DNA of 63,670 nucleotides, counting the filler, from Hausera hauseri (taxonomy: Eukaryota): assembly GCA_046269625.1 (NCBI GenBank). It is 10 parts of 10 records of this genome, joined end to end, with 100 filler letters (N's around TTAATTAATTAA, not from the genome) between each part and the next. Parts side by side here need not be neighbours in the genome. Positions count along the whole stretch, not along the records: positions 45,570 to 59,594 come from JBJURY010710991.1; 9 more parts are not named here. One strand, 5' to 3'. A program made the translations under genes and the position numbers. Each line of letters opens with the position of its first letter. The stretch's first letter is position 1. This document shows, piece after piece, positions 3,701-60,834 of the stretch. The notes below the pieces were generated by a model. It was given only the letters and a program-made list of their open reading frames with translations, did no database searches and was not told the origin of the DNA.

Positions 3701-3794
3701 AAAGCAACCATCATATTTTTATTGTACAACTGCATTCTGTTTGGTAATGGATATTTGCAAGGTAGTGCTTGTTTCAATTTACGTTCTTTTGCTA

Positions 3795-30653: not shown

Positions 30654-30753
30654 NNNNNNNNNNNNNNNNNNNNNNNNNNNNNNNNNNNNNNNNNNNNTTA
30701 ATTAATTAANNNNNNNNNNNNNNNNNNNNNNNNNNNNNNNNNNNNNNNNNNNN

Positions 30754-33583: not shown

Positions 33584-33584
33584 T

Positions 33585-35048
33585 TTATCTTCGTATTTTG
33601 AAAATAAGGCTGGAAAATTTGTGAAATAACTCTAATTTTTTGAGAAATGTCGTTGTGAAACGAGCACCATCATTTTCAATCAACGAACTCTCAATTTTCA
33701 GTTGTTCGAATACCATTTCAATACATTCATCTTTGACTTTGGCGATTTTAAAAACCGTTCGAAACTTATGATGTCGCTTAACAAAGAATTCATAAATTTC
33801 CAATGCGTGCCAAACTTTTCGGACGGCAACATCGATCCAGTCAGCTGTATTCCAAATACACAAAAAGAAATAGTCATCCGTTATATGCAAAAAACGCTCC
33901 AAATAATCATGAATTATATCACCATACTTTCTTTCAGCATAAATAGCTGTTATATGAAATTGGTCTTCACATTTCAACCACAACTGGTTTGTTAAAATCG
34001 TTATTGTTACTTCGGCAATATCCCCATATGTAACGTCTTTATGTTTTGATTCATTTCGAGTTACAACTGGACAGTCAATCGGAATGTATTTTGCCGTATC
34101 GTTCATTCGAACATTCAGCATTATTGTTTGACTGTTTTGTCGATTTATCGTTACTTTATCGAGACAATTTGAAAAATGCGGTGGAGGTGACGTATAAACC
34201 AAAGTTGTTAAATATTTAGATACTTTATTTAAGACATACCAACGAACGGCTCTCGTTAATTTTGGAATTTGCCATTTCTTATGGCATTTACTGCTGATTT
34301 CCACACCAAGCATTCGCGTCATAACCAACAGATTTTCGAAATTTTCATTGTTGCATTTCAATTTAATTGACATCAATACAACCGACAGAATATTTTTTGT
34401 TGCTTCAATTTGAAATTCCTCATTTTTGTGAGCTTCCATATGATTATTTAAACTGTTTTTTACGACATACCACGATTTCGAATGGCCGGTTTCGATTTCT
34501 GTTGCTTTAGGTCCAGTAAATTCAACACCAGTTGTCAATTTCTGCTTTTTAGTCGGTTGTCGGCCATATTCTTTGCAAATATTGCAAAAAATCTTGAACC
34601 CGTCGTCGATAGATTCCTTGGAAAATGTTATATTTCGTTCAATAAACGTATTGATGTTATCACATTCATCCGATGCTTTTCTCTTCTTTTTTATTTGACC
34701 GTCATTAATACCAGGTAAGGGACTGCCATTCTTCAGTGCTTCACACATTCGTTTGTATTTGTCAACTTCATTTCGTAAAATAACAATTTCCGTATCTTTG
34801 GTACCAAGGATAACCTTTAATTGCTTTGCATCATCAATATTATAAGCACTGGCACTTAAATTTTCCAAATTCAAACCACCGATAATAACCGGGCAAACAA
34901 CGTATGGATTGACAAAATTCGTACCTGCCGAATTAGTACCGGATCTATCTTTTGATATACAAGGCACGAATATTGACGACATGATTTCTGTACAACCATT
35001 CTTCTTAGTTCTAACATTCGTGTAAATCCACAGAGGCGACCTTTCATT
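33585..35048 (-). CDS. hAT-like transposase-derived ORF (zinc finger plus degenerate catalytic region), open to the contig edge
   Basis: IFCNICK…LNNHMEAH finger, FSNCLDKVT (first catalytic Asp position), CIWNTADWIDVAV (degenerate CxxH box) and GARFTT. The 22 codons upstream of the ATG at 34982 are also stop-free. Confidence 0.5.
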   Translation of the reverse strand, partial: NERSPLWIYTNVRTKKNGCTEIMSSIFVPCISKDRSGTNSAGTNFVNPYVVCPVIIGGLNLENLSASAYNIDDAKQLKVILGTKDTEIVILRNEVDKYKRMCEALKNGSPLPGINDGQIKKKRKASDECDNINTFIERNITFSKESIDDGFKIFCNICKEYGRQPTKKQKLTTGVEFTGPKATEIETGHSKSWYVVKNSLNNHMEAHKNEEFQIEATKNILSVVLMSIKLKCNNENFENLLVMTRMLGVEISSKCHKKWQIPKLTRAVRWYVLNKVSKYLTTLVYTSPPPHFSNCLDKVTINRQNSQTIMLNVRMNDTAKYIPIDCPVVTRNESKHKDVTYGDIAEVTITILTNQLWLKCEDQFHITAIYAERKYGDIIHDYLERFLHITDDYFFLCIWNTADWIDVAVRKVWHALEIYEFFVKRHHKFRTVFKIAKVKDECIEMVFEQLKIESSLIENDGARFTTTFLKKLELFHKFSSLIFKIRR

Positions 35049-36644
35049 NNNNNNNNNNNNNNNNNNNNNNNNNNNNNNNNNNNNNNNNNNNNTTAATTAA
35101 TTAANNNNNNNNNNNNNNNNNNNNNNNNNNNNNNNNNNNNNNNNNNNNGTATACGATGTGCATTAATGTATAGTGCATTTTTCCTTATATAATCACATGT
35201 AGGGTATTTATGTGATATTTATAGACCATGAACTTTTGTTATGGAGGTTAATGGGCAGTTTCACGAATGTTACTGCGTTCTCAATTTTTGTTTTGTACTT
35301 GTGTAATGTCACTAAATAGTTTTTTGCACTTGTTTACTTTTCTCCCATCCATGAGTGGATTCCAATGAGATACTTTTAAACTACTGGTGTATTTGGACTT
35401 CATTTTTTTACGAAGAGCACCAAAATTTTAAATGATCCAACGAAGTCATTTGGATGACATCCTACGAGAAAAATATTCTATAGAAGATGGTTAAACCCCA
35501 TCCCTTTTGGCACGCCATTGCATGTCATATAGAAATCTCTAATGTTTTCAGGTTTCCTCAATTGTCAGATCATAATTTTAATCTATTCGATCTTTAAAAA
35601 GTCGGACTCAGTTCGAAATGTGTATTATTTTCATGACATGATTCGACTTCAAGAGCCATCATTAGAAAACACAGTGAGAGTGAATTGAAATCACAACATG
35701 AAATATGCGAAGTGACTATTATGTAATTTGGAAATGGAGAATTAAAATTTTGAATCAAGCTTAAGTTTCCCATCTGGCCATTCAAACTCGACTTCAAATC
35801 ATGATCTGTAGCTGTTCCGTGCAATTAACGCATACGCACTTAATAATTTCCCTTGCACTCGAATGACAACATACACGAGACGGAATGTCGAGTGAATTAA
35901 CAGCTTATTAAGTGAGATATAAATGAGAGAAAAAATTCGTCAAAAACGTACCAAACATTTAACATATGATGTTTGTATAATGGGAGCATAAACATCGTCT
36001 TTTAAACGAGAGGGTTAATCCGCCAAATACGTCAGTGACAAATGCGCTCCGATAAAAAGATTTAATTAAATGTAACAGCATCGAAAATTTGTCTATGGAA
36101 TATTCGTTAAGGCAACAAACACCTTGTGATAATTATTTCGAATTGATTTTACTGTTTTTAATAAAATACATAAGTTTACTCAACTTTAACACTAGAACGA
36201 CCGAAATAATTTATACCTAAATGGCCAATGGTAGTAGTAGGGAGAAAATGTTCCTTCGGCTCCACATCCTCTCCCCTCTGATGGGGTACCGTAACTGTGG
36301 AATTTCACTATAGGAGCCGTCTCGACGTTCATGTTGCTATGGTGATGGGTCCATGGCAACCGTTACCAGGGATCCGGCTGATGTAGGATCGCTGCTCAGT
36401 GGCGGTTGATATGGTAACTATGTGCATAACAAGCGATAATCGCTAAATTCATTTTCACAATAATTGATTTTGTACAGTAACCCGATCGATTTATCGATCA
36501 AGTGGTTTTCCGGTAATTCCAATATATTGATGATTCGGACCCATGACCGAGTCAAATCGATTGAAAAAAAAAACGTTGTTCTATACAACTGTGCAGCCAG
36601 TTTTTAAATCGAGCAATATCGATTCGAATGTTGGTGTGTTTTAG

Positions 36645-36867
36645 CGTGGTGCCCACATCGACAGCCGCCCTCTCGTTCATTCGTTTGGGCACGGCCGGGC
36701 TTCCGCTGCCGACGCGTCGGGCACATAGGCAGGCCCCGATTTTCCGCCTCGAAAGAAGATAAAGTCAAACCTTGATAATTCGGATTATGAAAGCATCAAA
36801 GTGAATGATTCACAACATGAAACAAATGAAAATACCAATGAATGACAAGTGGTTCGATTATCAATTT
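36645..36867 (+). repeat. LTR-like direct repeat, copy 1, running into the MBOAT leader
   Basis: Closely matches 40314-40536, which begins TG immediately after a polypurine tract. Confidence 0.8.
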
Positions 36868-36985
36868 TCTTCATGCATCCAATCAAATTCGTCATGATTC
36901 ATTACATAAAATTCAGTGGATTTTTAATTCAAATCACTTTGTTGATTTTAAACCAAAATTTGTTTGTTTTTTATTTTCAATTTCT

Positions 36986-38438
36986 ATGTCTCAATTTTAC
37001 GGTGGTTCAGTTTTTCTATCACCATTATCGGACATTTTTGGGCTTCCAATTAATCAGATAAATTTCATTGTTTGTAGTCTATTGTCTATTGCACTTGGAC
37101 AAGTCATTCGACGATATGCATCCCCAAATAAAACCTCATCGAAAATTTGTGGTTTGATTAAAACCGTTTTGGGTTTGTTTATTGTTGTATTCTGTTACGG
37201 TGGTGAAGTGAAATATCTTCTATTTCAATCAGCCGTTTCCTATGTCTTTCTATTGATATTTCCATCAAGATTGGCAGCGTATTTGGTCACGATTTGGTCA
37301 TTGGGTTTTATGGGACTCGTTCATTTGTACCGCATGCATTTCGATTACGGTGGCTACACATTGGACATATCCGGTCCGGTTATGGTTCAAACTCAGAAAT
37401 TAACGAGTCTTGCCTTTAATTTACTTGCGGTTATCGGATAAAACGTGGCAATTCATTGAAAAACAAAAACCACGTAGAACACGCAGTGAAATCGTTACCG
37501 GATATTTTCAGTTTTGCCTCATATCTGTTGTATTTTCACGGGGTATTAGCTGGACCATTTGTATTTTACAACGAATACGTTGATTATTTGAATGGATACG
37601 ACAAACGAGCAATTCCTTGTTCGAAGAAACAACTATCAGCCGCGCTGACGCTGTGTGCCATTCACGGATTGTTGACCGCGTATGTGGCACCTCAATTTAA
37701 TTACATATTCGTGTGCAGTACAAATTATCAACGAATCCACATGTTCCGTGGAATAATGTTTACGATGATCTCATTTTTCTTGGTTCGACAGACATACTAT
37801 TTCGCATGGTTTATTGTCGAATCTGGGACACTCAGTGCCGGTTTGGGTTACAGTGGAAAAGACGAAAATGGTGAGCCGACATTTCCCAAAGTGAAGAATT
37901 ACGATTTTATGGCAATCGAAAGCGGAAGATGTTTAAAAGTCGTTGTTGATGGACGGAACCTTTCCACAACGAGATGGTTACGAGAAGTATTCTACGAACG
38001 ATCACCGTTGTGCTGTCGAACGATTTTGGTTTTTCTAATCAATGCATTCTGGCATGTATTCTATCCAGGGTATTACATGAAGTTTCTTGCTTTTGCGTTG
38101 TTTAAGTTTTGTGCACGAACTGTCCGACGGCAATTGCGTCCGTTATTTATGACGAATGCAATTACTCTCCAGCTTTATCACATTATTACAAAAATCTTTA
38201 CGAATCTAGCATTGAATTATGGATAGAGTCCATTTTATTTGTTGGAATTACAGTCCGGTTTATTTTCTGGAAACCGTACTATTTCGTCGGGCATTTTCTC
38301 GCAATGTTCTTTGTTGTAACACTTTATTTTCGGTCAATTATCAACGACAAAGTCAGTCTGATGAATTTTAAATTTGGTCCAAAAGCGCATTTACAATATC
38401 GACAATTTAGGGATCAGTCACAAAGAACTTTGGGTTAA
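36986..38438 (+). pseudogene. MBOAT-family lysophospholipid acyltransferase (MBOAT1/2-like) pseudogene
   Basis: NFIVCSLL, YTLDISGPVMVQTQKLTSLAFNL, VLAGPF, YYFAW and NAFWHVFYPGYY (catalytic His region). A 1-bp frameshift near 37427 and a stop at 38224-38226; no introns seen. Confidence 0.9.
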
Positions 38439-38726
38439 ATTTTAACTCTCTTCTTTTGCGTTTCGTGTGGCAATGTGTATAGATATTTCAATATCGTTTT
38501 GTTTTATCGATAAAGAAATAAATACATCTTTAGACGGACTTTTCAATTCATTAGCCATCTTAAAATTGGAACTTTTATATTTTCTATCACCGATTAGTTT
38601 CATCGTGTTCAAAATTGGAATTTTCTTTATATTATCGTATTCGAATCTACTTATTTTTGGAATTTCTATCATATATATATCTATTCGGATATTCATCGGC
38701 CAGGTAAATAATAAATTGGTGTCAGA

Positions 38727-39715
38727 AGTGGAATTCGTTGCAAAGGCAAGCATTTAACAGCGTGCATTCAATACACCATCCTGGTGTAAAAGTTACTTTT
38801 CGTTTACTCCATCGACAAGTAATTCGGCCGTCAATGCATTCTGATGTGCAGGCATGGGTTAAGGAGTGTGTGGCTTGCCAAAAATACAAAGCAACTAAGC
38901 ACTTAAGACCACCACTGTTCCATTTTCCCAGCACATCGCGTTTCTAATCCGTGCATATCGACATCGTTGGCCGTCTTCCTCCAGACAATGGTCATCAATT
39001 TATCCTTACCATGATGGATCATTCCTCGAGATAACCAGAAGCCATCCCTCTGCGGAGCACAAATACCGACACTATAGCTGACGTTTCCATTCGCACATAA
39101 ATTAGCAGGTTTGAATTACCTCGCTTCATTATCACGGACCAGGGTCCACAATTTGAATCCAACCTGTTCAAATCCCTTGGCAACTGATTGGGGTCCATCA
39201 CATACATACTACGCCTTATCGCCACCAATCGAATGGCCTTCTAGAACGTTTCCACCGAACATTGAAAACGTCACTAAGAATTCTGGCAGAGTTCAACACT
39301 AGTTGGATGAATTTTCTTCTGTTCGTTCTGCTCGGCTGGCGGAACACTCCGTCCACTTCTACAGGATGCTCATCTACTTAAGCCTTATTCGGAGCTCCTG
39401 TCCGATCATTATTCGAACTAACCGCCCTAGACAACACTCCCACGAATGAGACGATACGGGCGGCGCAAAATTACTTCATCGAGGTCAGCAAAGATTCGTT
39501 CTGCAGTCTACTTCACAAAGACAAAACATACCCCAAGATTTGTATTCGGCAAAATTCGTATGGCTAAATAATCAAGCGCCTTGGGGTTTCCAGCCGCGGT
39601 ACCTGGGGCCCTATAAACTGATACAGCTGCACTCACACAACTCCATTATCTCTAAAGACGGCAAAGACCTTACAGTACACAATACCAACTTAAAGCCCGC
39701 TTTCCTTGAGGACGA
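38727..39715 (+). mobile_element. Decayed Ty3/Gypsy integrase
   Basis: H…HPG…CVAC zinc domain, VHIDIVG, IITDQGPQFES, SNGLLERFHRTLK, and GPY motif YLGPYKLI. Several stops. Confidence 0.92.
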
Positions 39716-40313: not shown

Positions 40314-40922
40314 TGTTGTGCCCACATCAAGCGCCACCCCCTGGCCCATTCGGTTGGACACGGTCGGGCTTCCGCTGCCGACGCGTGGGGCACATAGGCA
40401 GGCCCCGATTTTCCGCCTCGAAAGAAGATAAAGGCAAAACTTGATAATTCGGATTATGAAAGCATCAAAGTGAATGATTCACAATATGAAACAAATGAAA
40501 ATACCAATGAATGACAGGTGGTTCGATTATCAATTTGTATTGTTGTATGCTGTTATGGTGGTTAAGTGAAAAATCTTCTGTTTCAATCAGCTGTTTTCTG
40601 TCTTTTTACTGATATTTCCATCAAGGTTGGCAGCGTATTTGTTCATGATTTGGTCATTGGATTTTATAGGACCCGTTCATTTGTACAGCATGCATTTCGA
40701 TTACGATGGCTACACGCTGGACATATCCGGTCTGGTTATGCTTCAGACTCAGAAATTAACGAGTCTTGCTTTTAATTTACTTGACGGTTATCGGATAAAA
40801 CGTGGCGATTCATTGAAAAACAAAAACCACGTAGCACACGCAGTAAAATCGTTACCGGATATTTTCAGTTTTGCCTCATATCTGTTGTATTTTCACGGGG
40901 TATTAGCTGGACCATTTGTATT
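40314..40922 (+). repeat. LTR-like direct repeat, copy 2, continuing into a second, internally deleted MBOAT copy
   Basis: 40314-40536 matches 36645-36867. The sequence then jumps to the equivalent of ~37177 and follows MBOAT to the contig end. Confidence 0.85.
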
Positions 40923-44735: not shown

Positions 44736-45725
44736 TAAAAATCAACCAATTATTTGAGGAGCACAAATAAAAACTCGCCATTCGTGGAATTAATTTTGGA
44801 AATAATGAAATATATCGCCATATCAACACACACTGCCTCGTTTATTGATTTTTAAATTTTGAATTTTTGATTATTTTCTAACATTCTAGACCACTTTGTT
44901 TTAAATGCATGTTGGCACAAAATTTAAGGTCTTCGACCAAGGTGAATCGAATGACGTCATTAGACTCTTCGAACATTGCACGCTTGACCAAGTTTTCGAG
45001 TTCGAATATCGATTTTATCGATTTCGAATAATGTATTCGAATATCTAACAGAGGATTATAAATCGCCATATATGGCTTCCTATGTGTGCGCTATCAGATT
45101 TATCGATTTCCGCATCATTGGTCTTTAAATGCAGATTTTGCTTAATTCGATTTATTAATTTTATACCTATATAGTACATTTTCATGGAATATCTTTAATG
45201 CACCTAGGGGTTTTCGGACATGGGAAATCGAATACCGTCGCCAGATTTTTCGAAAAGTTCGATATTCGATATTTGAAGGGGAAAATATTCGAATTTCGTA
45301 CATTCGACTCGATATTCGAGATCTCCATACTCGACTTCCTATCTGTCTCCGCTCAATGTGATATAGAAGTTTGAGTTCTTAGGGCAAATAAAACCTATGG
45401 GAAATCTGCCTCACTTGCACTTTGAATCGATATTATTCGAAATCCACTCGACCGATTTAAATTCTAATTNNNNNNNNNNNNNNNNNNNNNNNNNNNNNNN
45501 NNNNNNNNNNNNNTTAATTAATTAANNNNNNNNNNNNNNNNNNNNNNNNNNNNNNNNNNNNNNNNNNNNAGTCGAGATCTGATAAACTACGCAAGGCACC
45601 GCACGCAAGTGCAAACATTCTAACGAGAACGTTAGGACTTATCTGCTTAATATCATTTAAAAATTCGAGTTTCCGTATTGTTATAGTTGGGTGTTGGATA
45701 GGGCCCACCTTCAACTACTAACATT

Positions 45726-45743
45726 TGGGGACCCTAACAGGAC
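45726..45743 (+). other. Candidate primer-binding site after the LTR end (…AACA-TT-TGGGGACCCTAACAGGAC)
   Basis: CA followed 2 nt later by TGG, about 290 bp upstream of gag. Partial resemblance to a tRNA-Trp-type PBS (TGGTGACCCCGACGTGAT). Confidence 0.5.
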
Positions 45744-46011
45744 AGTTTGTACTTGCTAGACTTGACTTTTAGTGAAAAATAACGACATATTAGCGATCAG
45801 CGCTACCACATCAATTAATTGATTGCAGATTGTTGTGAAATTAAAATTTGGGATTATAAAGAAACCCTCAGTATTATAACGACATATTATTGAATTAAGA
45901 TCGAATATTGATAGACATAAGTCAGATGATAACTTAAATCTCATTCTAAACGGTAAAGAGAATATTAATTTTTGTGAAACACGTAATAAAGTTTATAGAC
46001 AAGGTAAGACG

Positions 46012-47264
46012 TTGAGTAGACGCACTTTATCTGAAACAAATTTAAGTGATACTGAACCTATTGACTTAAACGCTGTTGAGCAGCCTATTGAATCCAAGGT
46101 TCCTGATAAAAGAATTAGAACTCGTAAGGTAGTTAAGCAAAATCTTATAAACGTCGAAAATATGGTTGAGAATCAAGCAATAGCGCAAAAGTTGGACATA
46201 TTTACATTCGATTCGATGAATCTTCCGGCGTACGACGGAGACCCGGACGGACTTAATGAGGTCTGAAGGACATATAAGTTGCATGCAGAAGGTTCCGGAC
46301 TTGCATCTAACGTAATGATTAAGCGCCGGTCCTTATATTTAAAGAATTTGGCCGCTGATGCTTATAGCGAACTCACCGATGATGAAAAGGAAACTTGGTC
46401 CTCCCTGGTAGGAGCCTTGAATCGAAAATTGTTACATACTGTAACTCCGCAACAAAAGCTCATGGCTTTTCAGAATAGAGTACAACAAAGGGTGAATCGA
46501 TAACCCAATTCGCTTTTACCTTAAAGAAATTGGCAAACAGTTACGTAATCACCTTAAGGATAGCAAACATAGCCAAGGCTAAAAACGAAGCAAAACGTGA
46601 AGCCTCAGAAAAGGCAAATCCTCTAGATTTGGACGTCATGATGATGACGCAGTTAATAAACGGTATTTGGTCTAAAGACATAGTAAAGCAACTGATTCTA
46701 GCACGTCCGGAAAATTTTGATAGGACATTGCAATTGGCCCAGGACTTAGAAATGGCATTGGATAGATATGCCAGAAAGAATGACAGAAATGATAGAAATA
46801 ATGATCAAGTTGAACGAAGCGATAGAAATCGGAACAATAGAAATGGTAGACGATATAACAGGAATTATGGGGATCGGAACGAGAACCGTAATTATGATCG
46901 CAGAAACGATCGATACAGTAACCAGAATTTTGATAATAGCCGAAACAGTTTTCCTAGTAAACGAAATTATCATACAGATAAACGCATAGATGGCTCTAAA
47001 ATTTTTAATCGTCAGAACGACAGCCGAAATTACGATAATTGCCAATATGGAGACCCTAGACAGGCCCCTTCGCAACAAGACTACAAAAGAAATCCGAGCA
47101 GATCGAAATCTCCAGTGAACGAAGATGGCCCACAAAGGATCGGGAGAATTGGCAACTTAATCTGTTACATGTGCGGACAAGAAGGACATATAACGAGATC
47201 CTGTCCAAACCCGCGAAGTGTCTCGTTTGTGGAACCTAGTAAAACTAATGTAATTAAAAATTAA
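46012..47264 (+). pseudogene. gag (capsid, R/N/D-rich linker, CCHC knuckle)
   Basis: LPAYDGDP, YLKNLAADAY, QLINGI and CYMCGQEGHITRSC; internal stops. Confidence 0.85.
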
Positions 47265-50200
47265 AACTTAGAAGCAATTTACGGTGTCCGTACAGACACG
47301 GGTATGATCATTGAGATACAAGACTTACGACGCTTTTTAAAGGCCCAACCTGATACTAAAGACCCTAAAGTTTTAGTGGCTAGGAATGAATACGAGCATA
47401 AGGTACGATTATTAGAAGTTTATCACGGTCTACGCGAACCAGAAACGGAATGTGAACGTTCCATTGTCCCACCAAGGCTGAGTGATATAGCACGGAAAAA
47501 GAACGTTCCTACGATAAACAGAGTCGATCGAAACAGGAAAACCTGAGACTCCGGGTAAGGTAGATTTAGATGTAGAACCCGAGTATACTATAAAAAAGGT
47601 ATCCAAGGAGGCCGAGGCCGACGAAAAAAAGAATTTCTGGAACCACATACTTAAAATTACCAAGAATAGAGGCCGTAACCCATCGTTGAGACGAAAACGC
47701 AAGAATGGTTCGAGATCCCCAAAGATTAAAGAAAAGTCGAGCACCAAAAGAGAAACCGAAATCGCTTTGGAAATCGACGAAGTGTGCCTCGAACGTTCCG
47801 GAGATTGACCTAGTTACGCCGAGCGAAATGGATGAGCCGACGAAATCTATAAATGAGATAAACGACATATGTCCTTTACCTGCTAGTGAAGAGGAAACGG
47901 AACAAGAAGAGAAACTGGGTCCTAAAAAGTGGAAGATTAGGCGTTCGTGGAAAAATGCCGACGAATTAAAAAGAATGAGGATAAACTGCTTCAATCCAGA
48001 GGTAGTGCAACAAAATTTAGAGAAACTAAAGGCGATGAGTGAGCAAGTGGATATCTCGGGCAAAGAACAGCTGTTTGTAGAGAGATTATATGAAAAGATG
48101 AAACTATATAGTGAAGGAAAATTAAGCGAAGCTATAGATTTAGATCAGCTGGAAGAAGTGACAAAAGAAACACTAGTCAAATGGGAACACGAACTAGAAA
48201 AATGGATGAAAAGAGAGATGAAGCTTCCGGAGACGTGGAATAAAACTACCCAAGACATTGAAGATAAAGTTAACCAAGCTCAATCTTTATTAACTACATT
48301 GGAAGTCAATCCGAAATTAAAAAGAGCAGCACGTAATCTAGAGCGTGTCATGAATGAAATTAGATTTGTAACAGTCGAATGACTCAATGGAAAACCGGTC
48401 AAAGAACGAGATGCAAATGACCTAGAGATGATGGGCATAGATGCCATAGATATTCCACCCTTGATGGAAATGGTAAATGTCGCTTAAACGGCATCAAGGC
48501 AATATACAAGTCTTGAAAATCGTATTAGGATTGAAGCCGAAAAACGGTCGCAGATATATGGGCTAAGGAACAGAATTGTGCATCTAAATAACGACGAAAC
48601 ACGAAAAATAATTATGGCTTGCATCCTCGAGTTCGATGAATACAAAGACGAGTTTGACTATGCCTACCGAATCATCGATTATATTAAAGGTCCAGATGAC
48701 GAGCTAGAAGACGCTCGAAAATTGTTGAACAAAGCAATACTGGCAAAGCCAGAAATCGCTAACTAGTTGAAAGAATGGTCCGAAGTAATAACGAGGCTGA
48801 GTAAATTAGTAGCCGATCGAAAAAGGAATTTCCGGAGAGCGAACCTGCAGTAAAGAAGCGATTAGAAGACGCCCGAAATCTAGATACGATGAATGCAGAA
48901 ATTGACATCCGAACCCAATTCGAGGCATTACGCCAATTGAACTTCATGGAAAAGAAACAAGAGATGATACTAGACGATATATATATATAAGATGATCGAA
49001 GAAACAAACTTCATGCGAAAGCGAAATGTGACTTATGATTTCTACCCACGATTACGAGATGTCCGTCGGAATGGAATACGGTGGTTGACAGCCAAACCTA
49101 TCGAAGAAATCTCGATTCGAGATCTTAAAACCTTGGACTTTTGTCCCGAATATTGGTCGATCGTTGAAGAAACGGTGAAGTTCTTACACTAGCCGCAGGA
49201 ATGGATGGACGGAACGGATCAGAGACATCATATGGAACTGATTAAAATAAAGAATGACCACCACCTTAGCTTTGAGTAGATCAATTTTGTAAAAAAATTT
49301 ATTAGATGCGATAGATCCGAATTTAAAGTGTATTAACGAGATGTACGAATTAGCGCTATTTATGGCAGAAATGGCAGAAATTAGTGACGAGAAACTAAGA
49401 CAATTGCTGCAGCAGATGCAACAAGTCGAGGAAACTTGCATTAAGGCGAAACAGAAAGCGATGGGATTAGACGATCTAGCTAGAGAACTCGAAGTCTATA
49501 AATAAAAATACGTCTTTACATAAGCCGAAAAAGCTCACAAGTCACAATTCGTTTAAAGATGGCAGAGATGTCATGTCTGAACTAACGAAATATGAAGAAA
49601 ATGGGTTAATTTCCCCCGAAGAACTATGTTCGTTATTAACAATGCTCCACCAAACACCCTCTAATGGGCGATGTTTCCGAACGACGAAAATGGTCCAAAT
49701 GCAACAGAAACTACAAGAACTCAGAAAAATTACATGGACCGCAAGTGTGGATAGACCAACGGATGTACCGTCAAGGGACCATCAACTCCCGGATAACGAT
49801 AATGAAACAGAATGGGAGGCATATTTAGACGCAATGATTGCCGAGAATCCCAAAACCCTAATACTATTGGATGAAATGGAAGTATATTTTCCGGACCAAA
49901 GGTTCAACGTAGGAATGCTTCTGGACCCGGTACACACCGAAAAAGATTTAATTCAATTAATTGAACTGAACCTCACTGAAAATCAATTGAGACATCTAGT
50001 CCTACCTTAACTACGTTAGCTAGCGAAGGTACGACTTCCAGTACGGTACCTAAGCTTTTACTCAAGGAATATGCTAAAATCTTAAAGGCAAGGGCAGAGG
50101 AAATGATCCCAGTAAAGATAACATCAGACTGGATGGACGAGAAGGAATAAGAGTTTACTACGCGCTCCCTTATGAAGGATGTATTACTGTGGATAAAGAA

Positions 50201-51044
50201 CAATGGATAGGGCCCATGAGCTAAGCTATAGACTCTATTTTAGAGGAAGGATACTAGACGAGTCGGAATTATTGATAGAAGTTAGAATTATTCCAGGTGA
50301 GGTAAACCGGTTAGTGGTACCTATTGCCATCGATGAAACAAAGGAGGAGGCCATAAGAAAAGCTAAAGCAGAACAACAGGTAGGACAAATAATAGGAGTC
50401 CGAGATCCAACAGTATATTTCGAGTACCTGCAGAAAAATGAAGATAATGAACAATACGATAAGAATTTAGTACCCATAAATAGCAATGTACCTATTATAA
50501 CAAAACAGAAGCGTTCTGTCGGTAGGCCGCGGAAAACACGAGAGGAAATCGATTACAATGGAGATTTAATCAGAGTTGAGACAAATGTCCATACCGACCT
50601 TTAGTGCGGATAATGAGGAACTGAACGAACTTATGAAAGACTTGATACGAATAGTAAACCACTCTAGCCTCGGCGGTGATGTATTAGATGAGAAAGAGAA
50701 AGCCATAGCGAACGCCGCAAAGGCTATGAAAGGCCTTCGGTGTAAATTAACCAGAAGTATTCTAAGCGATGAAATGATAATCGAGAAAATTATGGTAGAA
50801 AACACCATAGAGGAATTGAGAAAAGTGTTGCTATATCTGGCCATCAGAACCAAACCGAACAGAGAAAGTGAATTTAACAAGGCTCCTTGCTTGGCAAGGA
50901 AGGCTGCCAGGAAACTGCCCCGAGAAGTGGATTGGACGAAGCTATTCGAAAAAGAAGAGCATCAAAATATATTCTTCTTCGATAACAATAGATTCGGAGA
51001 TTTGCTACGAAACGTGACTGGAAATCGCAGCGGAAATGAATCGA

Positions 51045-52900
51045 ACTGGCTAATCAATTTTTTGACCATGATGATGTTAATAAGGCAAATGGGCGCAGTC
51101 ACAGTATATGATTGTGACAAATTCAGACTTGGCCAAAAATATTCGTTAATGGACTTCGAAATGTGCGAAGATGCGAGGCCTTACAGATTAGAAACAAAAG
51201 AGAAAAGTTATATATTATATCAACAACGCGAATTACTTACATTGAACGGAATAGAATATATGTTGCGGCGATCTCGCAGCATTTTCCATTGTGGGCTGGT
51301 ACATGAATACTCATCAATAATTAAGCCAACAACCCCACTAATTCCGATGAATTTAGAGCGACAGCATTGTAAGCAAGCTAGAGAAACGGGGAGAATAAAA
51401 TGGGACGGTATGGAAATGGAAATGCAGCAAGTGAAAATAATCAGTGTATGAAGTGGCAGTAGGAAGACTGGATATGCACACCGGACACTGTCACGGTGCG
51501 GAATACGATACCGGAAAGGAATTAGGGTCAAACATCGTGGTAGTGGATTTTTACGAAACCGAAATGCGTATACAGAAAGTGATGTTTTATAGCGTTACTA
51601 AACTTTACACCGAGAACCACAAGTGCCACATTCAGGATGGCACATGCCTGTTTTGATGTTCCGTAGTAATTTGGGAACCCCCAGCCAAGACCTATTGCAA
51701 CTTTATCAGAATTAAAGAACTTAAGTTCAATGAGACGACAGGAAAACGGTATATAAGTAGCACAGAAACTAATTCTAAAACACGAGATGTAGCCGAACAG
51801 TCCACACCCACGATACTGATTTCTGATACTCATGGATTAAAATTTGTAAAAAAGGCTATGCTCACCAGATGCGACGTCGCAATGTACGCCACCAACTATG
51901 AAGCATTTTTCGTAGCCGAGACAGAAATAAACGCCAGAACGTTCAAACTCGAGACTCAGGGCATCCGGAGTGAAGACTATTTGAAGAACAGAGACGACTA
52001 TTTCTATTATAAAGGACAAGCCGGAATAGCCGAGTTATACCACAAAATGATAACAAATGACTGTAAATTGGACTATGAAATCATGAGAATTAAGCTGGCC
52101 CTGATATACGCCAATCCCGAGTTGGCATCACCAGTAATTCCGATGAAGGAGGGTGTTTTTGGACGAGTAACCGGAGAAGTCTTATTTTACCTATGAATGA
52201 GAAGAAAGACGTACCGATTAATGTGGAAGAGAAGAGGTGTATACAAGAACTTCCAGTGATATATTAGGACGTACTGAGATTAGTAACACCGATTACCAGA
52301 GTGTTGTTGGCAAACGCCACTCAACCGACAATTCTGAGAGACTGTAAAACCAGCTTAGGAGAGCAGATGTTCAGACGTAGCGAGACCGACTGGGTAAGTC
52401 TACCGAACGGCGGTATTATCGCATTACCTAGCAAGCTTACAGGAACAAACCTGATAAAAGGAATAACCGGTGATAAATTTCAAGATACAGCCGCAAAAGG
52501 TATTTACCGACCAAAAGACGTAGAGGCGTTTAGACAATTTTTCGCTTTTCCCCGCCGACGTACACATGAATTAAACAGCAATGCATACAATATTGGAGGA
52601 TTCGCGCTACCAGGCGAAATGGGAATCGTTACTTGGTGTTTGTTATAATAAAAAAGTAACTACAGAGGTAATGTATAAAGTCTGGGGAAGATTCCTGATG
52701 TTCGGACAAGCCGCGTCAGGATTTCTAGCGATATATTTCTTAATTTAACTGATAAAAGCTATAATTCAAGCAATCATAAATGGATACGAGATATTCACCT
52801 TGACCGCATTTTCGTGCAAAATTTTAACGGCTATCATTACACCCTTTAGCAAATTCCTAAAGGCTTATGAAGAGAGTAAATAGAAAACAGGTGTGGAGCG
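51045..52900 (+). pseudogene. Chuvirus-like / gB-like class III viral fusion glycoprotein (env), decayed
   Basis: Signal-like WLINFLTMMMLIRQMGA, then VYDC…YSLMDFEMC, RSIFHCG…C..ARETG, CHIQDGTC, DYLKNRDDYFY, GVFGRVTGEV, CIQELPVIY, VTPITRVLL, and C-terminal WGRFLMFGQAASGFLAIYFLI-LIKAIIQAIINGY. The motif order is the one I recall for chuviral/retroelement glycoproteins. Confidence 0.72.
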
Positions 52901-53498
52901 ACATGTTGACTACCATAATTGAAAACGTAAAAGACGCATATTTGATTACGGGCAAAAATTCATAGATAGTAAGACACGAAGAAACAATTCTGATGATGAC
53001 GAGCCTAAAGGAGGAGACGTCATCTCCGGGCCGAGCAGGCACAAAAATTACTCTGTTATGAAACTACCATTACCAATATTGCCGCCAACGTCACCCATAT
53101 ATGAAGATTGCGAGAACCAATCTATGAGCTCGTGTCAGACAGACGTCTATCGGAAGCCATTTAACCTAGAGGATCCTTACGAAGGAACAAAACGCTATGG
53201 GATATTGCGTAAGATCCACGGAACAGAGAGAACCTCGGCTCCATACTATCGATCAGCAGTCGACGACCACGGTATAATTTACTCACCTAGAATACCTAAG
53301 CCAAACGAAAGACAGTCAATATTTACCGGAAGCCGTGAAACACACCATCTCAGAAGCCAAGAAATTCAGCCGCCAGCTAGAAATCAAGGAATAAAAAACA
53401 CGAATGGCATGACTAATGAACTATACCCAATCGGAGAATTATGACATCTAATTGACCAGCCAGTCGGAACCACTGAAGTTACCATAAACGGCTACAAG

Positions 53499-56400
53499 GT
53501 GTCCACAATACGACATCCTAAAACAGCACCAAATTATTACGGTACGGTAATCAAAGGCAGGCCCTTCGCAAAGATTCAATTGGAAGATTGGGAAGTTTAT
53601 GCACTAATAGATACAGGATCTGAAAGATCACTGATAAAATATGATTCGATACCACAATTCCTACGGAAACGATTATATCCACCTCCCACGACAGACCCAG
53701 GAAGCATTGGAGCTTTCGGACAGTCGTCGAAAAGTAAATTCCGTTGGAAACCAGAAATTCACATAATGGGACAATCTTTTCACTATGAATTTTCAGTTAT
53801 GGAGCAATTGACGGATGATGTAGTGTTAGGGTGTGACTTATTGAGACAACTACCTAATATAGCAATCAATTTCAATGCCGGCAAGTTGATAAAACTTGAC
53901 CCAATAAAGGAGTTAAAACCACTAAAGACCGAAAATTTGGAGAAGTGTAGATTCCAGTGGACGAAACTATACCGCATAGAACGGAAGTACTCATATATGC
54001 CCAAATACGTCAGGATGACGATCAGCCAGTATGTTTTGAGCCGAAAGAATCGCTTAATCCAAATATTGTGCTCAGTGACGTTTTGACAAGAGTATCAACG
54101 GGCCGCGTGCCAATCCGAATAGCGAATAACGCACCCACTCCCATCAAACTGTACGCCAATACCACTTTGGGACACACGTATAGAGTCTCAGCGATTTCCA
54201 TCGAAGAAAAACCGTATAAGGGTGCCGAATTTCCACCCCATGTTGAGACTAAATTTTCACCGGAATCATATTGTCGATTTTATGAATTACTTTGCCGCTA
54301 CAGCTCAATTATCGCGAGAAACGAAGAAGATATTGGCCGCGCCAGAGCCCTAAGACTCACGATTCCGCTTAAGAAAAATCCTGGTTCCAACAAGGAAATA
54401 GATCTTAAGAATCAAAAGATGCCGAAATGGTATCCTCCTTTAAACTCATTAAGGCCAGAGATAACCAAAGAGGTTGAACGAATGTTAAAGGCCGACATAA
54501 TTAGAACAAGCTACAGATCTTGGTATTCACCAATACTCATGGTTAAGAAAATATGTACCACTGAGCACCGATTTTGCATCGACTATCGAGCGTTAAACAC
54601 GCTTATGCTGAAGGTCTTCTTCCCGTTACCATCGGTAAAGAAAGCTTTGGACAGACTCTCTGGAGCCAAATGGTTCACCACGCTCAATTTACAATCTGGA
54701 TACTGGCAAGTCGAGATAGAGGAGGAAGATCGTTACAAAACGGCATTTAAGACACACAATGGTATATACAAATTTAATGTTATGCCATTTGGGATAACTA
54801 CCGGACACACCATTTTACTCTTATGATGAATAAAATGCTAATGGGAATGGAACACACGTTTGCCTACTTAGACGACGTCATGATCGCGTCGAAAACGGAA
54901 GAGGACCATCTAAAAGATATCGAGGGTACACTTATGAGACTAGAGCAGGCTAGACTGAAACTGAATCCCAAAAAGTGCAAATGGGCTCAGAATGCTGTGT
55001 CGTACCTCGGACATATAGTAGGAGAAGGAGGATCGAAGCCGGATAAATCATTATTGAGTAAGATATCGGATTGCATGGAACCTCAGAATCAGAAGGAATT
55101 AAGACACTGGTTAGGGTTGTGTGGGTATTATGCTACTTATGTACCAGACAATGCGAAGATAAACGCACCTTTGTATCGTTTATTGAAAAAGGGGATCAAA
55201 TGGAAATGGACCGATGTCGAACAAAAGGCTTTCGACGAAATGAAAAAGGTTCTAACTAGTGAACTCGTTTTAAGATATCCCGACTTCAACTTACCGTTCA
55301 TAATCAAAACAGACGCCAGTAAGGAATGTATCGGATATGAACTGGCCCAAAAACGAGAAGACGAAGAGTTGGAGCACCCTATTGCATACGGAGGACGTTC
55401 CGTGAAGAAAGCGGAGAAGAACTATTCTGTTACGGAGTTAGAAACATTAGCCGTAAAAGAAGCACTGCGACATTTTAACGTGTATGTCTTCGGACAGAAG
55501 ATTATAATCGTTACTGACCATAAGGCAGTCACGACCTTCAAAGGTAGGGCAATTAATCCACCCTGTAGACTTAACCGGTGGATTGAGGAGATTTCACGTT
55601 ACAATATTGAATTCCAATACAAACCCGGAAATAAACATGTCGATGCCGACGCATTATCAAGACTTAAAACGAATACAAGCGCAGTTACATTAATGAGGAG
55701 AGCCCACCTCGGAGATTTAGTAGAAAGACAACGGACTCTTACACTGGATAAGGCATTAAATATTGCTGTTGAACAGGGAAAAGACAAGGTTATACAACAT
55801 ATTATCGAGTTCATTGATACCAACGTAACACCAAAGGATCATCAGTTACGGAAACACCTACGACAATATGGTCACAAATATTGCGTCGCTGGAGATTTGA
55901 AGCATGAAATTATACTACGAACGAAAAGGACGAAAATTGGTAGTCATACCAAAAGGATTGCGTTCAGAAGTACTAATGGCCAAACATGATTCGTATTTAG
56001 TCGGACACGTCGTGGAAAAAGACCCTAGAAAGAATCTTGAATAAATATTATTGGCCGAGCATTTACATTGATGTGAGAAACTGGGTGAATGCTTGCGAAG
56101 TATGCGCGACCAAACAAAGAAAAGTGAAAAACTACATCGCCGAGCTCGAGCCTGTCTACGTGCCCGATAGACCAATGCAAGCGATGTCTATTGATATTAT
56201 AGGATCATTGCCTACGACCCACAAGAATAAAAAATACATTTTGACCTGTGTAGACCGATTGAATCATTTCGTCGAGCTTACAGCGTTATTAGACCAAACG
56301 GCCGAGACCTTGGCAGAAGCGGTAGTCCGGAAAATCATTTGCAGATACGGGCCACCCGAACAAATCTAGACAGACCGAGGAAGAAACTTCACGAGAGAAT

Positions 56401-57017
56401 TATTCGACAAGATTACCAAAATTTTTGAGATTGAACGATTAACTATCACAGCTTATCATCCCCAATGTAATGGAATGGTCGAACGAATGAACGCGACAGT
56501 TAAACAAATCTTATCGACACTAGTCGCAAAAGACCAGAAGGATTCGGATGATTTCTTGGAAGGCACACAATTTGCTGGCAGAGAAGCGGTGCTTCCTACA
56601 GATTTAGGACTGATCCCATACACAACAAGAACAGAATATTTAAAACAAAATTTCGTCGAGGTATTGCAACTGAGATTACACAAGTGTTGGGCAATAGCCA
56701 AAGAATTATCTAAAGAATACCAGGAACAATTCAAGAAGCAGTATGATAAGAAGGCTAAACCACACGATCTAGAACCCGGAAATTGGGTCTACATACACTA
56801 CCCAGTAGCAAAGAAAGGCACGTCTCTTAAACTTACCAGGATAGGTAGAGGACCTTACGAAGTTACTAAGGTTACACGAACCACAGTTTATATAAATAAA
56901 AATGGCGAGGAAGAGGTCATATCAATTCAGAGAGTAGTCAAAACGGAAATAAGACCAAAAAACGCTATAATTTGCGTTAAAGCAAAACAAATAAAGAAAA
57001 GAAAACGTCGTCGATAG
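53499..57017 (+). pseudogene. pol: protease, reverse transcriptase, RNase H, integrase
   Basis: ALIDTGS…VVLGCD; RFCIDYRALN, LQSGYWQV, MPFG, AYLDDVMI; KTDAS, YSVTELETLAV, VTDHKA, ADALSR; YYWP…CEVC, IDIIG, NGMVERMN, RGPYEV. Confidence 0.95.
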
Positions 57018-58339
57018 TGACTAGACCAATATCGTATGTACAAATAGTCCTGACCTTATCGTTAATCGCTTCGTATATACCCAAAGTGAAATCGATCACT
57101 CAGACCGGAAAAGTAAAATATGCAGCAAAACGGAAAGATATCCAAAACTTACAATCACTTTGAGTAAATGATATGGATTGGAGAAAACCATGTTCATGGT
57201 TTGAAGCAAACGAACATATTCAAAGCCACGTAAAATTTCAAATAATATTTGTAATTGGGAACACGATGAGAATGTGCGATTTTCCGTACGGCGTTCATAG
57301 GAGATGTTGTCATTTGGATTTTGGACAAGCCTACGGATACAGCTTCCAAATGTTTTATTTTTATCAATTTGAGACTCAAGCCTACATAACTACGGGACTC
57401 TCAATAAGAATGCCCCAACGAAAGGACGCAAATCAAGCTAAGATGGACGAAATAATTCGAATCACGGATCCATTGAAGAGGCGCTTAGATTACAACATTG
57501 TTGGGATTCACAAGGACTTGAAAAACCAGTGTATTCGAATTGAGACCAAAATCGAACTGCCAGGAGACAGAGAAATTTCTGTCCAATTTATACCACTGAA
57601 CACTTCAATTCCTGAATCGGAGTATTGTTATTTGGTCAAACGACGACCTACTGTGTGTTGTGTGCTGCTATTAGGACAAGAGTATCAATTGCAACTCGAT
57701 TTGTACAATACGTACTCTGGAGAACCAAGTATCTATTTAAGAGAATATCGCCCAAAGAACGGAATATGGAATCTTCCGGTCCCAGCCACTACGGGAAAAC
57801 CATCCACGCCTCCGAGCACAACTCTCACTGCTACGATTGTCACTTCGGACGAAATGCTAGGAAGCATGCCGGTTAAGATTTTGGCAAAAAGTAATAGAAT
57901 CCTATTTTACGCTGAGGAAACGATAAATCAAGACGTAAAAATTGAATGTCGCACCCTGCACACCAACTAAGTTGTGGTCCTGAGAAAGAATAGTCAAGAA
58001 ACTGAATGTAGGTCATTACAACCACAACATAATTATATAGTCCGAATTACTGCAAAGGGTAAAAATCCTAAAACTTTCACAGTCCAAACTTTTGACAACA
58101 AAATTGAAGTAAGGCGGTATAAAGATCTTAGTACGCAAAATGTGTTCACCACGGAAAGTTTTATTGAGAGAGACAATTTATGGATAATAGTTATATTTAG
58201 TTTGTCAATTTTTGTTCTTGTCATAATAACCGCGATGATTTTTCTAGTTTCCAAAAATTGTAATAAGCGCTGCAAAAATCGAAAGGGAGATAAACGGGTA
58301 AAAAGACACCGAGACGGACCTTATAATAGCATAACCTAA
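57017..58339 (+). pseudogene. Type I membrane protein with an FN3-like module, immediately after integrase
   Basis: Signal-like YVQIVLTLSLIASYI at ~57035-57080, a Cys-containing ectodomain, a P/T-rich stalk, SLQPQHNYIVRITAKG (FN3 LxPxxxYxVxVxA pattern), TM LWIIVIFSLSIFVLVIITAMIFLV and a basic tail. ORFs 57173-57970 and 57974-58339 are in one frame, split by a single TAA. Confidence 0.6.
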
Positions 58340-58439
58340 CAACGACAGATCGGGTTATCCTATCATCAGACAGAGAAAATGTTTTGTTTCAAAATAATGA
58401 TGTCTTAGGATTAACCTTTATTTTTATTTCAGCAGAGTA

Positions 58440-59594
58440 AGTATAGCAGAGAAGGCGAAGAATCCAGCAGTCCATTCCAATTTCGATATCTATGACTTCT
58501 TACAGCAGCATGTCACGGTCCTCAAACCACTATCCATAAGTTTATGTAGACAAATTGGAGAAAATATGAAAACTCACAACTATCTCGAGTTCAACAAAGA
58601 GAGTAAAATACCAAACGGGCTAAAATGGGTTTTAGAAGAGAATCGACTGGTCCGATTATTTGCCATGCGAAGCCCAAAGGATGTATGTGCATACCTATTA
58701 AAGGATCTAATGTCGCTGATGGAGAAATTCAATACAGGATCGTAGGACAATCCTGGAGTACACAAATGGGATAGCAATGGAAATTGAGTACTTACGAGCT
58801 ATATTGCTATAGCCTCATGAATTATGCTTTGGAATTCAGGATCGCCAACCTTCCGACCAAAATCATGATCGAGATGACGTGGCGGACAGAGGTAATGAAG
58901 CCACTGCTACCGTTGCTATATGTACAGAAACCATCGGAAGATGAGATACAGCAGAATGGGGAATCTTATAGATTGGTCCCAGATGGCCGGAATATCCGGA
59001 TATTATCCGTAAACTATGGAGAAAAAGATGACGGATGGTACGTTCCGATTGAGGTCTCTATTAGAAATACTAATAGAGAAGAGATTGAAAATAAAGTAAT
59101 CGCACCTCGAGCTAGGATAAAGGATACCTTCCCTGACGTCACCGGAATTGCGAAGGTACAGCTCGAAAAAGGAAAAGATTTCTTGGAAATCCAAGAAGAT
59201 ATAAGCCATTGTTTCTATTGATATATTGTTACCGGATTCCGAGTACACGAAGCGTTAGAACGACTAGGAATTAGGCAAGAATACATTGCCGGAATTCGAG
59301 AATTGAGCCGAAACCCAGCAGTTGTGAGCCAGGTAGAAAATACGTTAATGCTGATAAGAGGTTGTTTACTTCCGTCAGCATCGCGCGAATCGCAATTTAA
59401 GATGATGCTAGAAGCCATGAATGGCGAACGATACAAATTCTCTAAGCTGATCACAGCAAGTCAACGGACCAAATTTATAAAGGATATTTATGATTCGTTA
59501 CGATGGGATCACGAGTGGAAACACAGAAATTACATGCAGAATGCGATATCCGACAACAATCCCAAGAACCTAATACAAAAATTCCGAAAAGGAT
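58440..59594 (+). pseudogene. Further unknown 3' coding region of the large retroelement
   Basis: Co-oriented ORF pieces (58784-59221, 59303-59594) with the same composition, running off the contig. Confidence 0.45.
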
Positions 59595-59694: not shown

Positions 59695-60500
59695 TTCAAC
59701 TTGTAGTAGTCCTTTTCGAACTTTGCACAAGCTGCGGCTCGTTTTTTTTGAATTTCCCTCAATGTATGCCTTTAATATCGGCGTTTGGTTGAATTTGATT
59801 CCTGCAGCTATGTGACGCTTACACCGAGCAGCATGGAGACCTGTGGCAGACGCCAATGGACCACGTAATTCAGCTTCGGTTCTTGCGTCATGAAGAGTTT
59901 CTTAACCTTTGAGCCGCCGAGCGGACATTGGCTGATTGGTGTGACAGGCAATTGGTCCAAAGCGTCATGCGACTCATCGGGTATCACGAGATCAACTTCC
60001 ATCAGGTACCCGAATGAGCTGTTTTCTGCCGTGTCTACTGTCGGTAAATTTTCCAATATTGTCTCCAAATCTTGTTTGTCCATTAATCATTCAAATGAAC
60101 CGTACGGCAAGGGTTGCGAAAGCTCCCAGCCATACAGATTATTAATGTCAATGTACAGTAGTGATGTGGTATTATCATCACTGGAAGCATCAGTAGCACT
60201 AACGTGGTGCTTGTTGACAAATGTCATGCGGCCACGAATACAAACATCAAACAGTCGGTACCTTTCTGGGTCTTGGAACAGGTCAATGTCCCGGTTCAGT
60301 GATATCAAAGCCGACGCCCAACTCATTCCCGGTATGGAGTAAAAGTTGAGCGGCTCCAGCCTATCTTCCGCCAACGCCTTAGTTCAAAATATCTGAAACA
60401 CGTCGGCCAGCAAGTACACGTCCAGTTTCAGATAGTGGAGCATGTAATCCAATAGACTTCTGCAGCCTAGCTCTGACCAAGATTCCTGTGCTTTGCAATA
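59695..60500 (-). mobile_element. Third pPolB relic (same family as 19760-22400), internally deleted
   Basis: AEDRLEPLNFYSIPGMSW, LLYIDINNLYGW, GYLMEVDL and KLFMTQEPKLNYVVHWRL, near-identical to peptides at 20921-21591. Confidence 0.88.
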
Positions 60501-60834
60501 TTCATCACCATTGTTTCCTGTTTCCTTGCACGTTTTCGAATTCTTCAAGTGCATAATACTGCATTTTGCAGTTGTGTTGGAATTTTTTCACTTCAGATTC
60601 CAACGGGTTTCGCACAAAGGATGGAACATGTCTCAATTGCGTTGTTGTTGTTTTTGTCGCTGACATGTTCATTTTATATCCACGTACGATTTTTTTAGAT
60701 CATATATGACAGTAATGCGTGGTTCCTCCCCCTGTTGCTCCTGTTCCTGCTGCTGCTGCTGTTGCTCATTCTGCTGTTTTTGATTTCTGTTGTTTTGCAA
60801 GTATTCGTCAAGGCTTGTTTATGCCTGACGTTTC

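Follow-up and report, generated by a model that had tools for sequence, protein, structure and literature searches.

A decayed gene for a predicted FN3-like membrane protein behind the integrase of a Ty3/gypsy element in Hausera hauseri

The DNA analyzed here, referred to as the window, is a stretch of 63,670 nucleotides from Hausera hauseri (assembly GCA_046269625.1) in which 10 parts of 10 records are joined end to end. One of these parts, contig JBJURY010710991.1 at positions 45570-59594, is coding on its plus strand nearly throughout, is A-rich on that strand, and carries a retroelement with the gene order gag, a long region without family match, class III fusogen, protease (PR), reverse transcriptase (RT), RNase H (RH) and integrase (IN). 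Directly behind the integrase lies a further open reading frame (ORF) that is predicted to encode a type I membrane protein with fibronectin type III (FN3)-like domains (Table 1). The analysis supports the presence of two unrelated membrane-protein genes in the element, a class III fusogen gene upstream of the protease and the FN3-like type I gene behind the integrase.

The ORF consists of 440 codons and is interrupted by two in-frame stop codons (57161-57163 and 57968-57970). It overlaps the integrase stop codon, leaving no gap between the two genes. A chance frame was ruled out: when 56981-58336 was base-shuffled 5000 times, the frame with the fewest stops among the six contained 22 on average and 9 at the minimum, and none (0/5000) reached two or fewer. 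No in-frame ATG is present in 56901-57100, hence none ahead of the signal-like stretch, and because of this absence the copy is regarded as a pseudogene. The signal-like hydrophobic stretch (57029-57079) has a 9-residue hydropathy maximum of 2.77, the ectodomain contains 10 cysteines, the transmembrane (TM) segment reaches a 19-residue hydropathy of 3.09, and the tail has no catalytic domain. A preliminary description of this DNA had listed a signal-like stretch, a Cys-bearing ectodomain, a Pro/Thr stalk, a 24-residue TM segment and a basic tail directly behind the integrase, and all of these were found. A degenerate second fusogen was also considered and ruled out, the ORF having no match to PF24664 or to F-type proteins.

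Table 1. Features of the ORF and of the surrounding element (positions in the window)
Feature	Positions	Strand	Basis
Pseudogene, type I membrane protein, three predicted FN3-like domains	57017..58339	+	full-length homologue P0122, 39% identity, E 8e-79
Signal-peptide-like segment, ATG absent in this copy	57017..57097	+	17/27 residues identical to P0122
Domain D1, 4 Cys, FN3-like (predicted)	57167..57400	+	repeat of D2; Atlas fn3 neighbours for P0122 D1-D2
Domain D2, 4 Cys, FN3-like (predicted)	57515..57766	+	33/84 identical to P0122
Pro/Thr/Ser-rich stalk	57767..57865	+	sequence; both homologues Thr-rich too
Domain D3, 2 Cys, FN3-like (predicted)	57866..58096	+	Pfam fn3 E 0.049; identity 36/76 P0122, 34/76 P0123
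24-residue transmembrane helix (predicted, hydropathy)	58178..58249	+	11/24 identical to each homologue
Basic 29-residue cytoplasmic tail, membrane-proximal Cys, terminal YxxI	58250..58336	+	Cys and YxxI-T in 3/3 sequences
gag remnant, broken; capsid-like region inferred, one CCHC knuckle at about 47163-47210	45880..47264	+	zf-CCHC E 1.7e-4
Charged, probably helical coding region without family match, several frames, gag to env	47265..50200	+	stop-poor stretches
Possible ubiquitin/SUMO-like module (weak), cf. Burro before env	50230..50370	+	Rad60-SLD_2 E 0.12, below cut-off
Class III fusion glycoprotein (Monjiviricetes type) remnant; C-terminal TM part in protease frame	51050..52889	+	PF24664, 4 pieces
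Aspartic protease	53556..53852	+	RVP E 1.3e-6
Reverse transcriptase (YLDD) and RNase H, with frame change	54557..55602	+	RVT_1 E 7e-12, 1.9e-12; RT_RNaseH_2 E 6e-33
Integrase, stop at 57015-57017	56040..57017	+	Integrase_H2C2 E 3.8e-6, rve E 4.3e-13
Splice-acceptor-like site ahead of next ORF	58406..58432	+	most pyrimidine-rich of 3 acceptor-like sites in 14-kb contig
Further accessory ORF remnants without family match, cut by contig end	58434..59594	+	frames

A full HMMER scan over 1.84 billion representative proteins gave three matches to the ORF, P0122, P0123 and P0124. P0124 is a tandem-repeat protein matched over only 33 residues and was dropped as spurious before aligning. P0122 is intact, has 479 residues and covers query residues 1-427 of 440, whereas P0123 (189 residues, 40% identity, E 5e-29) covers the C-terminal part (query 257-421); both are singletons, from European Nucleotide Archive (ENA) contigs of 4.9 and 16.2 kb. 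A single frame suffices to align P0122 with the window DNA, across both stops, and the protein keeps all 10 ectodomain cysteines. In addition to the segments compared in Table 1, it is identical at 22/78 residues in D1, 12/26 in the tail and 2/23 in the N-terminal linker, so that signal, TM segment and tail are better conserved than the linkers. The YxxI-T terminus and the cysteine just inside the membrane are common to the ORF, P0122 and P0123. N-glycan sequons number 1, 4 and 0, respectively, and none is shared in position by residue number. Because an intact homologue that is 39% identical keeps every ectodomain cysteine, the gene was under selection, and the conservation pattern shows selection on what is predicted to be a membrane protein of the secretory pathway. 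The putative family of the ORF is an undescribed cargo family in a known kind of element.

Other databases added no member to this family. A word-indexed protein search gave none among 2475 candidates for the ORF and none among 18 for alignment A1, of which only 30-102 residues were covered. PDB sequence searches gave nothing informative for the ORF, A1 and P0123, nor for three neighbouring regions without family match. Searches with A1 for related loci were negative in viral contigs (0/280 candidates), metagenomes (0/195) and prokaryote genomes (0/48), as was a search for related loci with P0010, a database polyprotein, as query (0/16). PHROGs contained no match for the ORF family and tblastn against phages gave none; three plasmid matches at E 2-8 were dismissed as chance.

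The ectodomain consists of three modules, D1, D2 and D3. D1 and D2 form a repeat pair, since their hhalign score of 27.6 was reached by 0/100 column shuffles. When D3 is searched alone, fn3 (PF00041) is its sole Pfam match, at 14.3 bits against the curated cut-off of 25, and P0123 also matches fn3 below the cut-off (E 0.12, 13 bits). In the ESM Atlas, all 10 rows listed for D1-D2 of P0122 are fn3 clusters (0.85-0.88), fn3 feature neighbours overall lie at 0.83-0.88, and the whole-protein neighbours include FNDC5, IL-11 receptor alpha, FNDC9 and cytomegalovirus US8 (herpesvirus US8 glycoprotein cluster, 0.84). Every module has the pattern C-x(1,2)-L-x5-Y-x-hydrophobic. Its portion Leu-x5-Tyr-x-hydrophobic, which we take to resemble the FN3 signature before strand F, occurs three times each in P0001 and P0122, once in P0123 and nowhere in 155,343 residues of pol proteins; the shuffle P of this signature is optimistic because the pattern was devised after the sequences were seen. 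Taken together, an FN3 or Ig-like fold of the ectodomain is probable.

Several results pull the other way. The similarity of D2 to D3 is borderline, its score being reached by 5/100 column shuffles, and that of D1 to D3 is not above shuffles (35/100). Pfam fn3 gave no match for D1, D2 or P0122, D1 and D2 alone have no Pfam match at all, and every FN3 score is below the cut-off. Atlas scores under 0.9 are leads, which a third of shuffled proteins can mimic. The WSxWS motif is absent from all three sequences, by which a class I cytokine receptor was ruled out. Of the FN3-like strand pattern in the preliminary description, the FN3-like character stands as a fold suggested by weak but concordant signals below the Pfam cut-off, whereas the single stretch is replaced by three repeated modules.

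Judged from its sequence, the element is a Ty3/gypsy element with the known GAG-ENV-POL layout and resembles Burro of planarians. Pfam finds the pol order PR-RT-RH-IN and a zinc-knuckle gag upstream of it; one CCHC knuckle was found in the element, and the capsid domain of gag has no Pfam match. The env lies between gag and pol and is of the class III (gB-like) type: four pieces match PF24664 (Monjiviricetes fusion) with E-values of 9e-9, 2e-8, 0.021 and 2e-14, three of them exceeding the cut-off, and span profile positions 5-608 of 653. The fusogen that the preliminary description had placed in the element is thus real. The C-terminal env piece and the protease share one frame, with stops in between. 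A spacer is present between PR and RT, and 53951-54250, where a dUTPase-like domain was sought, has no Pfam match. In a tree of 51 rows, in which the 50 others were picked from 120 matches by score and length, the RT sits on a long branch (1.65) in no supported clade, with a best identity of 45%. This copy is decayed, because every gene has stops or frame changes. No LTRs (long terminal repeats) were found among the repeats listed for the contig, whose two ends are cut by N linkers, and the 3' boundary of the element is therefore not visible.

Between gag and env (47265-51049) there are about 3.8 kb of coding sequence without family match, with the possible ubiquitin-like (Ubl) module at 50230-50370. 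In the pieces scanned, the charged region gave no Pfam or PHROG match better than E 0.028, and a PDB sequence search with the module gave nothing informative. A probably helical segment lies just upstream of the env signal region; Burro carries Ubl and BCL2-like domains in this part of the element. BIR, ankyrin, MATH, BCL2 and dUTPase domains had no Pfam or PDB match in the pieces scanned, which leave out 48860-49550.

Behind the FN3-like gene, the region 58406-59594 contains an acceptor-like site at 58432 and then two ORF remnants; its composition is element-like, and it is many-copy in X1, a public sequencing run described below. The remnants gave nothing informative in Pfam, PHROGs or PDB. 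That these further remnants lie behind the strongest acceptor-like site of the contig suggests that the 3' accessory region was expressed from a subgenomic RNA.

The ORF is very probably part of the element. It directly follows the integrase and shares its strand, and among the repeats listed no long repeat pairs the 5' part of the contig with downstream sequence. The AT skew of the ORF (+0.15) falls within the range of the element ORFs (+0.15 to +0.32) and not with two host-like ORFs (-0.12 and -0.07), and its synonymous codon use is closest to that of the element (codon likelihood 0.055). Stops and frame breaks are about as frequent in it as in env and pol, by inspection. X1 is the one public sequencing run that contains the element; no RNA run is listed as containing it. 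In X1, 34,027 of 15.5 million contigs fall on the 14 kb, mostly less than 95% alike, and cover 30/30 bins. Forty variant sites were listed, with 3182 more beyond these. At the listed sites, 21 and 14 variant contigs were counted in the ORF (2 sites), 18-101 in env-pol (15 sites) and 20-38 downstream (5 sites), and a 381-base contig with 58 differences falls within the ORF. Because of these counts, the ORF is taken to be a diverged repeat with apparently fewer, or more diverged, copies than env-pol.

It is improbable, in our view, that the ORF lies outside the element, be it as an adjacent host gene without introns, as a retrocopy or as a second mobile element nested behind the integrase. The missing LTRs and the invisible 3' boundary would allow it. 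None of the 8 X1 pieces listed bridges the integrase junction, X1 may be the window's own sample, and the codon likelihood differs little between the element and two unrelated AT-rich ORFs, for which it is 0.040. None of 12 distant RT loci has a homologue of the ORF; these loci say little, however, because their RTs are only 28-36% identical and the loci are mostly short. Against a separate origin stand the zero gap to the integrase stop, the shared strand and composition, the many diverged copies in X1 and the break frequency similar to that of env and pol.

We compared the locus with described systems. GAG-ENV-POL gypsy errantiviruses with HSV/gB-type env occur in nematodes, bryozoans and flatworms (Chary and Hayashi, PMC13524379, citing Sacco 2022). 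The 1512 elements described there have one env, extra ORFs are not annotated, and the words 'fibronectin', 'accessory' and 'attachment' are absent from the main text. Like the present element they have gag, a class III env and PR-RT-RH-IN on one strand and occur in many copies, but the present element has in addition the interval of about 3.8 kb separating gag from env and, behind the integrase, further ORFs totalling at least 2.6 kb, among them the FN3-like gene. Because the GAG-ENV-POL order is already known (PMC13524379, PMC6431247), the env slot behind the integrase can be regarded as vacant. Burro (GYPSM1) is a giant planarian gypsy element of over 30 kb with a mononegavirus-like env in frame between gag and protease, and Burro elements carry Ubl, BCL2, BIR and ankyrin modules with apoptosis and ubiquitin functions (PMC6431247). 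The position of env, its C-terminus in the protease frame (with stops between in our copy), a long extra coding region after gag and accessory ORFs are shared, and possibly also the Ubl before env. Burro differs in its 2-3 CCHC knuckles against one here and in the modules that had no match here, and the element is not filed as Burro because no other Burro modules were detected. That review does not mention an FN3 membrane ORF (0 occurrences of 'fibronectin' in PMC6431247).

Atlas virus (Belpaoviridae, hookworm) is likewise an LTR element whose envelope combines a fusogen, Gc, with a putative receptor-binding partner, a preceding region slightly similar to Gn (PMC9094657). Its class II Gn-Gc pair was, however, captured jointly from a phenuivirus and forms one polyprotein, whereas the two genes here are unrelated and flank pol, the second being host-like in appearance. 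LTR elements of bdelloid rotifers (ORF3; PMC5408684) and MDG1-type elements (sORF2/FAST-like proteins; bioRxiv 2025.03.14.642691) carry additional ORFs that have TM segments but are not env, in part located behind pol. Those proteins have 70-230 residues and stand in place of env, whereas the present one has about 440-480 residues with a disulfide-rich multi-domain ectodomain and is found besides env. Lepidopteran LTR elements also have extra TM ORFs behind pol, and chuvirus-like glycoproteins occur next to LTR elements (PMC10084718). Nothing on the ORF is contained in the parts of PMC12440569, PMC8532177 and PMC13238120 consulted. Judging from literature listings, with subscription journals and Repbase outside the search, none of the papers listed describes an FN3 or second surface gene in a retroelement or invertebrate virus. 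The earlier view that a split into two membrane proteins is foreign to retrotransposons was too strong, given the Gn-like region of Atlas virus and the TM ORFs that rotifer and lepidopteran elements have behind pol. Database polyproteins show either placement of env within a single open frame: PF24664 lies upstream of the protease in P0010 and downstream of the integrase in P0087. P0010, an env-pol fusion among the RT matches, was rejected as a close relative, with 18% identity in its env piece (E 0.068) and a tree position left unresolved.

What the protein did can be discussed from the architecture and its conservation. The reading we tentatively favour is that this decayed but conserved gene encodes a single-pass membrane protein, a captured receptor-like accessory factor displayed on the surface of element-expressing cells. 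After env had settled inside the polyprotein region and left the 3' slot to captured cargo, the mRNA of a host FN3 receptor or adhesion gene would have been retro-captured without introns, become fixed in that slot and diverged beyond recognition. Expression of the protein may have relied on a subgenomic RNA or on ribosomes re-initiating at the integrase stop, and its own signal peptide would have brought it to the cell surface. There it may have bound a host ligand or surface partner, as a decoy or host-modulating protein; with a short tail that ends in YxxI, the protein would be sorted or internalised after binding but would not signal by itself, and entry would be left to the polyprotein-made class III fusogen. 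Captured FN3 receptors are found in viruses, such as retroviral v-mpl of myeloproliferative leukemia virus (MPLV) and the poxviral cytokine-receptor decoys, among them those of the interferon-gamma receptor, and they alter host signalling. The present gene shares with these the host-type FN3 receptor modules in a virus-like setting, but no sequence link to them is shown, it has no WSxWS and it keeps its own signal, TM segment and tail. The intronless type I FN3-like architecture would fit a host-receptor origin, and to this extent the captured host receptor proposed in the preliminary description holds; no donor gene was found, however, by the word-indexed protein search, the HMMER scan or the PDB search, which speaks against this reading. 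So does the fact that YxxI tails are equally typical of virion glycoproteins and receptors.

The main competing role, possible but doubtful, is that of a protein for particle attachment or cell-to-cell spread. Located in the particle envelope or where cells meet, it would engage a receptor of the host and either bring the class III fusogen into place or set it off. The type I topology with a stalk and three sandwich-like domains, the usual env slot occupied by the gene, the US8 glycoprotein cluster among the Atlas neighbours and the precedent of a two-part envelope in Atlas virus are consistent with it, and the YxxI and membrane-proximal Cys conserved in 3/3 sequences resemble viral glycoprotein tails. 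However, N-glycan sites are few and unshared, related elements with a single env are widespread, and rhabdovirus-type G proteins bind their receptor and fuse unaided, without a partner. The listed sites in the ORF also have fewer variant contigs than those in env-pol, so that some members of the family may have kept env but lost the ORF or let it diverge. Somewhat less likely still is its elaborated form, a herpesvirus-like two-protein entry system evolved from unrelated parts. In it, a class III fusogen from a negative-strand virus, situated within the Gag-Env-Pol polyprotein, would act with a receptor-binding protein of three FN3 domains that stems from the host, is expressed separately and occupies the vacated env slot. 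Superinfection exclusion, in which the protein would bind and remove the receptor of its own or a rival fusogen via YxxI-driven uptake, appears improbable: the conserved tyrosine motif on a short non-catalytic tail and a 3' accessory position like that of retroviral receptor down-modulators suit it, but a three-domain ectodomain with 10 conserved cysteines probably exceeds the size that such factors usually need. That the gene is a neutral passenger, a host mRNA acquired by template switching and carried without function, is very unlikely. The broken copy with its two stops and absent start codon would agree with this, but the intact 479-residue homologue keeps the cysteines, signal, TM segment and terminal motif, and because it does so neutral drift cannot yield such conservation, unless the homologues are host genes.

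Returning to the captured accessory factor, we consider a host-modulating decoy or adhesion role slightly more likely than particle attachment. It is favoured because related single-env elements are common and the gene seems less evenly retained than env, because Burro-like elements gather host-regulatory cargo and because related viral fusogens mostly work alone. The gene also has another 3' ORF as its neighbour and the conserved YxxI at the end of its tail, and for these reasons, too, an accessory role is preferred.

The other contigs of the window contain features of their own. The parts are joined by 100-base fillers, each made of N runs around a 12-base linker with stops in all frames (9 linkers), and adjacent contigs need not adjoin in the genome. 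An AT-rich contig has at 30698-35096 (-) a 976-residue open frame, an odd mosaic with weak matches, all under the cut-off, to topoisomerase IV subunit A (E 1e-5), inositol monophosphatase (6e-5) and ubiquitin (3e-5), beside a 503-residue frame without match. A satellite array of more than 110 diverged copies of 68 bp occupies 22789-30650. Related remnants of a protein-primed type DNA polymerase B, probably Polinton-like and 72-78% alike, lie at 59903-60600 (-; PF03175 E 0.004) and 20884-21331 (+), and other gypsy-type RT and integrase remnants at 3750-4700 (-) and 38600-39500 (+). An uninterrupted 775-residue frame at 13008-15335 (-) matches heparan sulfate N-deacetylase/sulfotransferase (E 1e-85), is of animal type and is intronless across the stretch. 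An MBOAT acyltransferase frame (36842-38226, E 2e-15) has a partial duplicate at 40315-40922, 91-98% alike and about 3.4-3.7 kb downstream.

In conclusion, surveys of gypsy elements with an env go no further than gag, env and pol, and the present locus indicates that a GAG-ENV-POL lineage kept, under selection, an extra surface protein of an undescribed family together with at least one further 3' ORF. Should the protein be a receptor mimic, an invertebrate retrotransposon would share its decoy strategy with large DNA viruses, and the ligand of the mimic would lead to a host pathway by which elements of this kind are restricted. Should it be an attachment protein, its receptor binding would provide a handle on the choice of target cells by invertebrate retroelements. 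The intact natural homologue P0122 opens the fold and the binding partner to direct testing.
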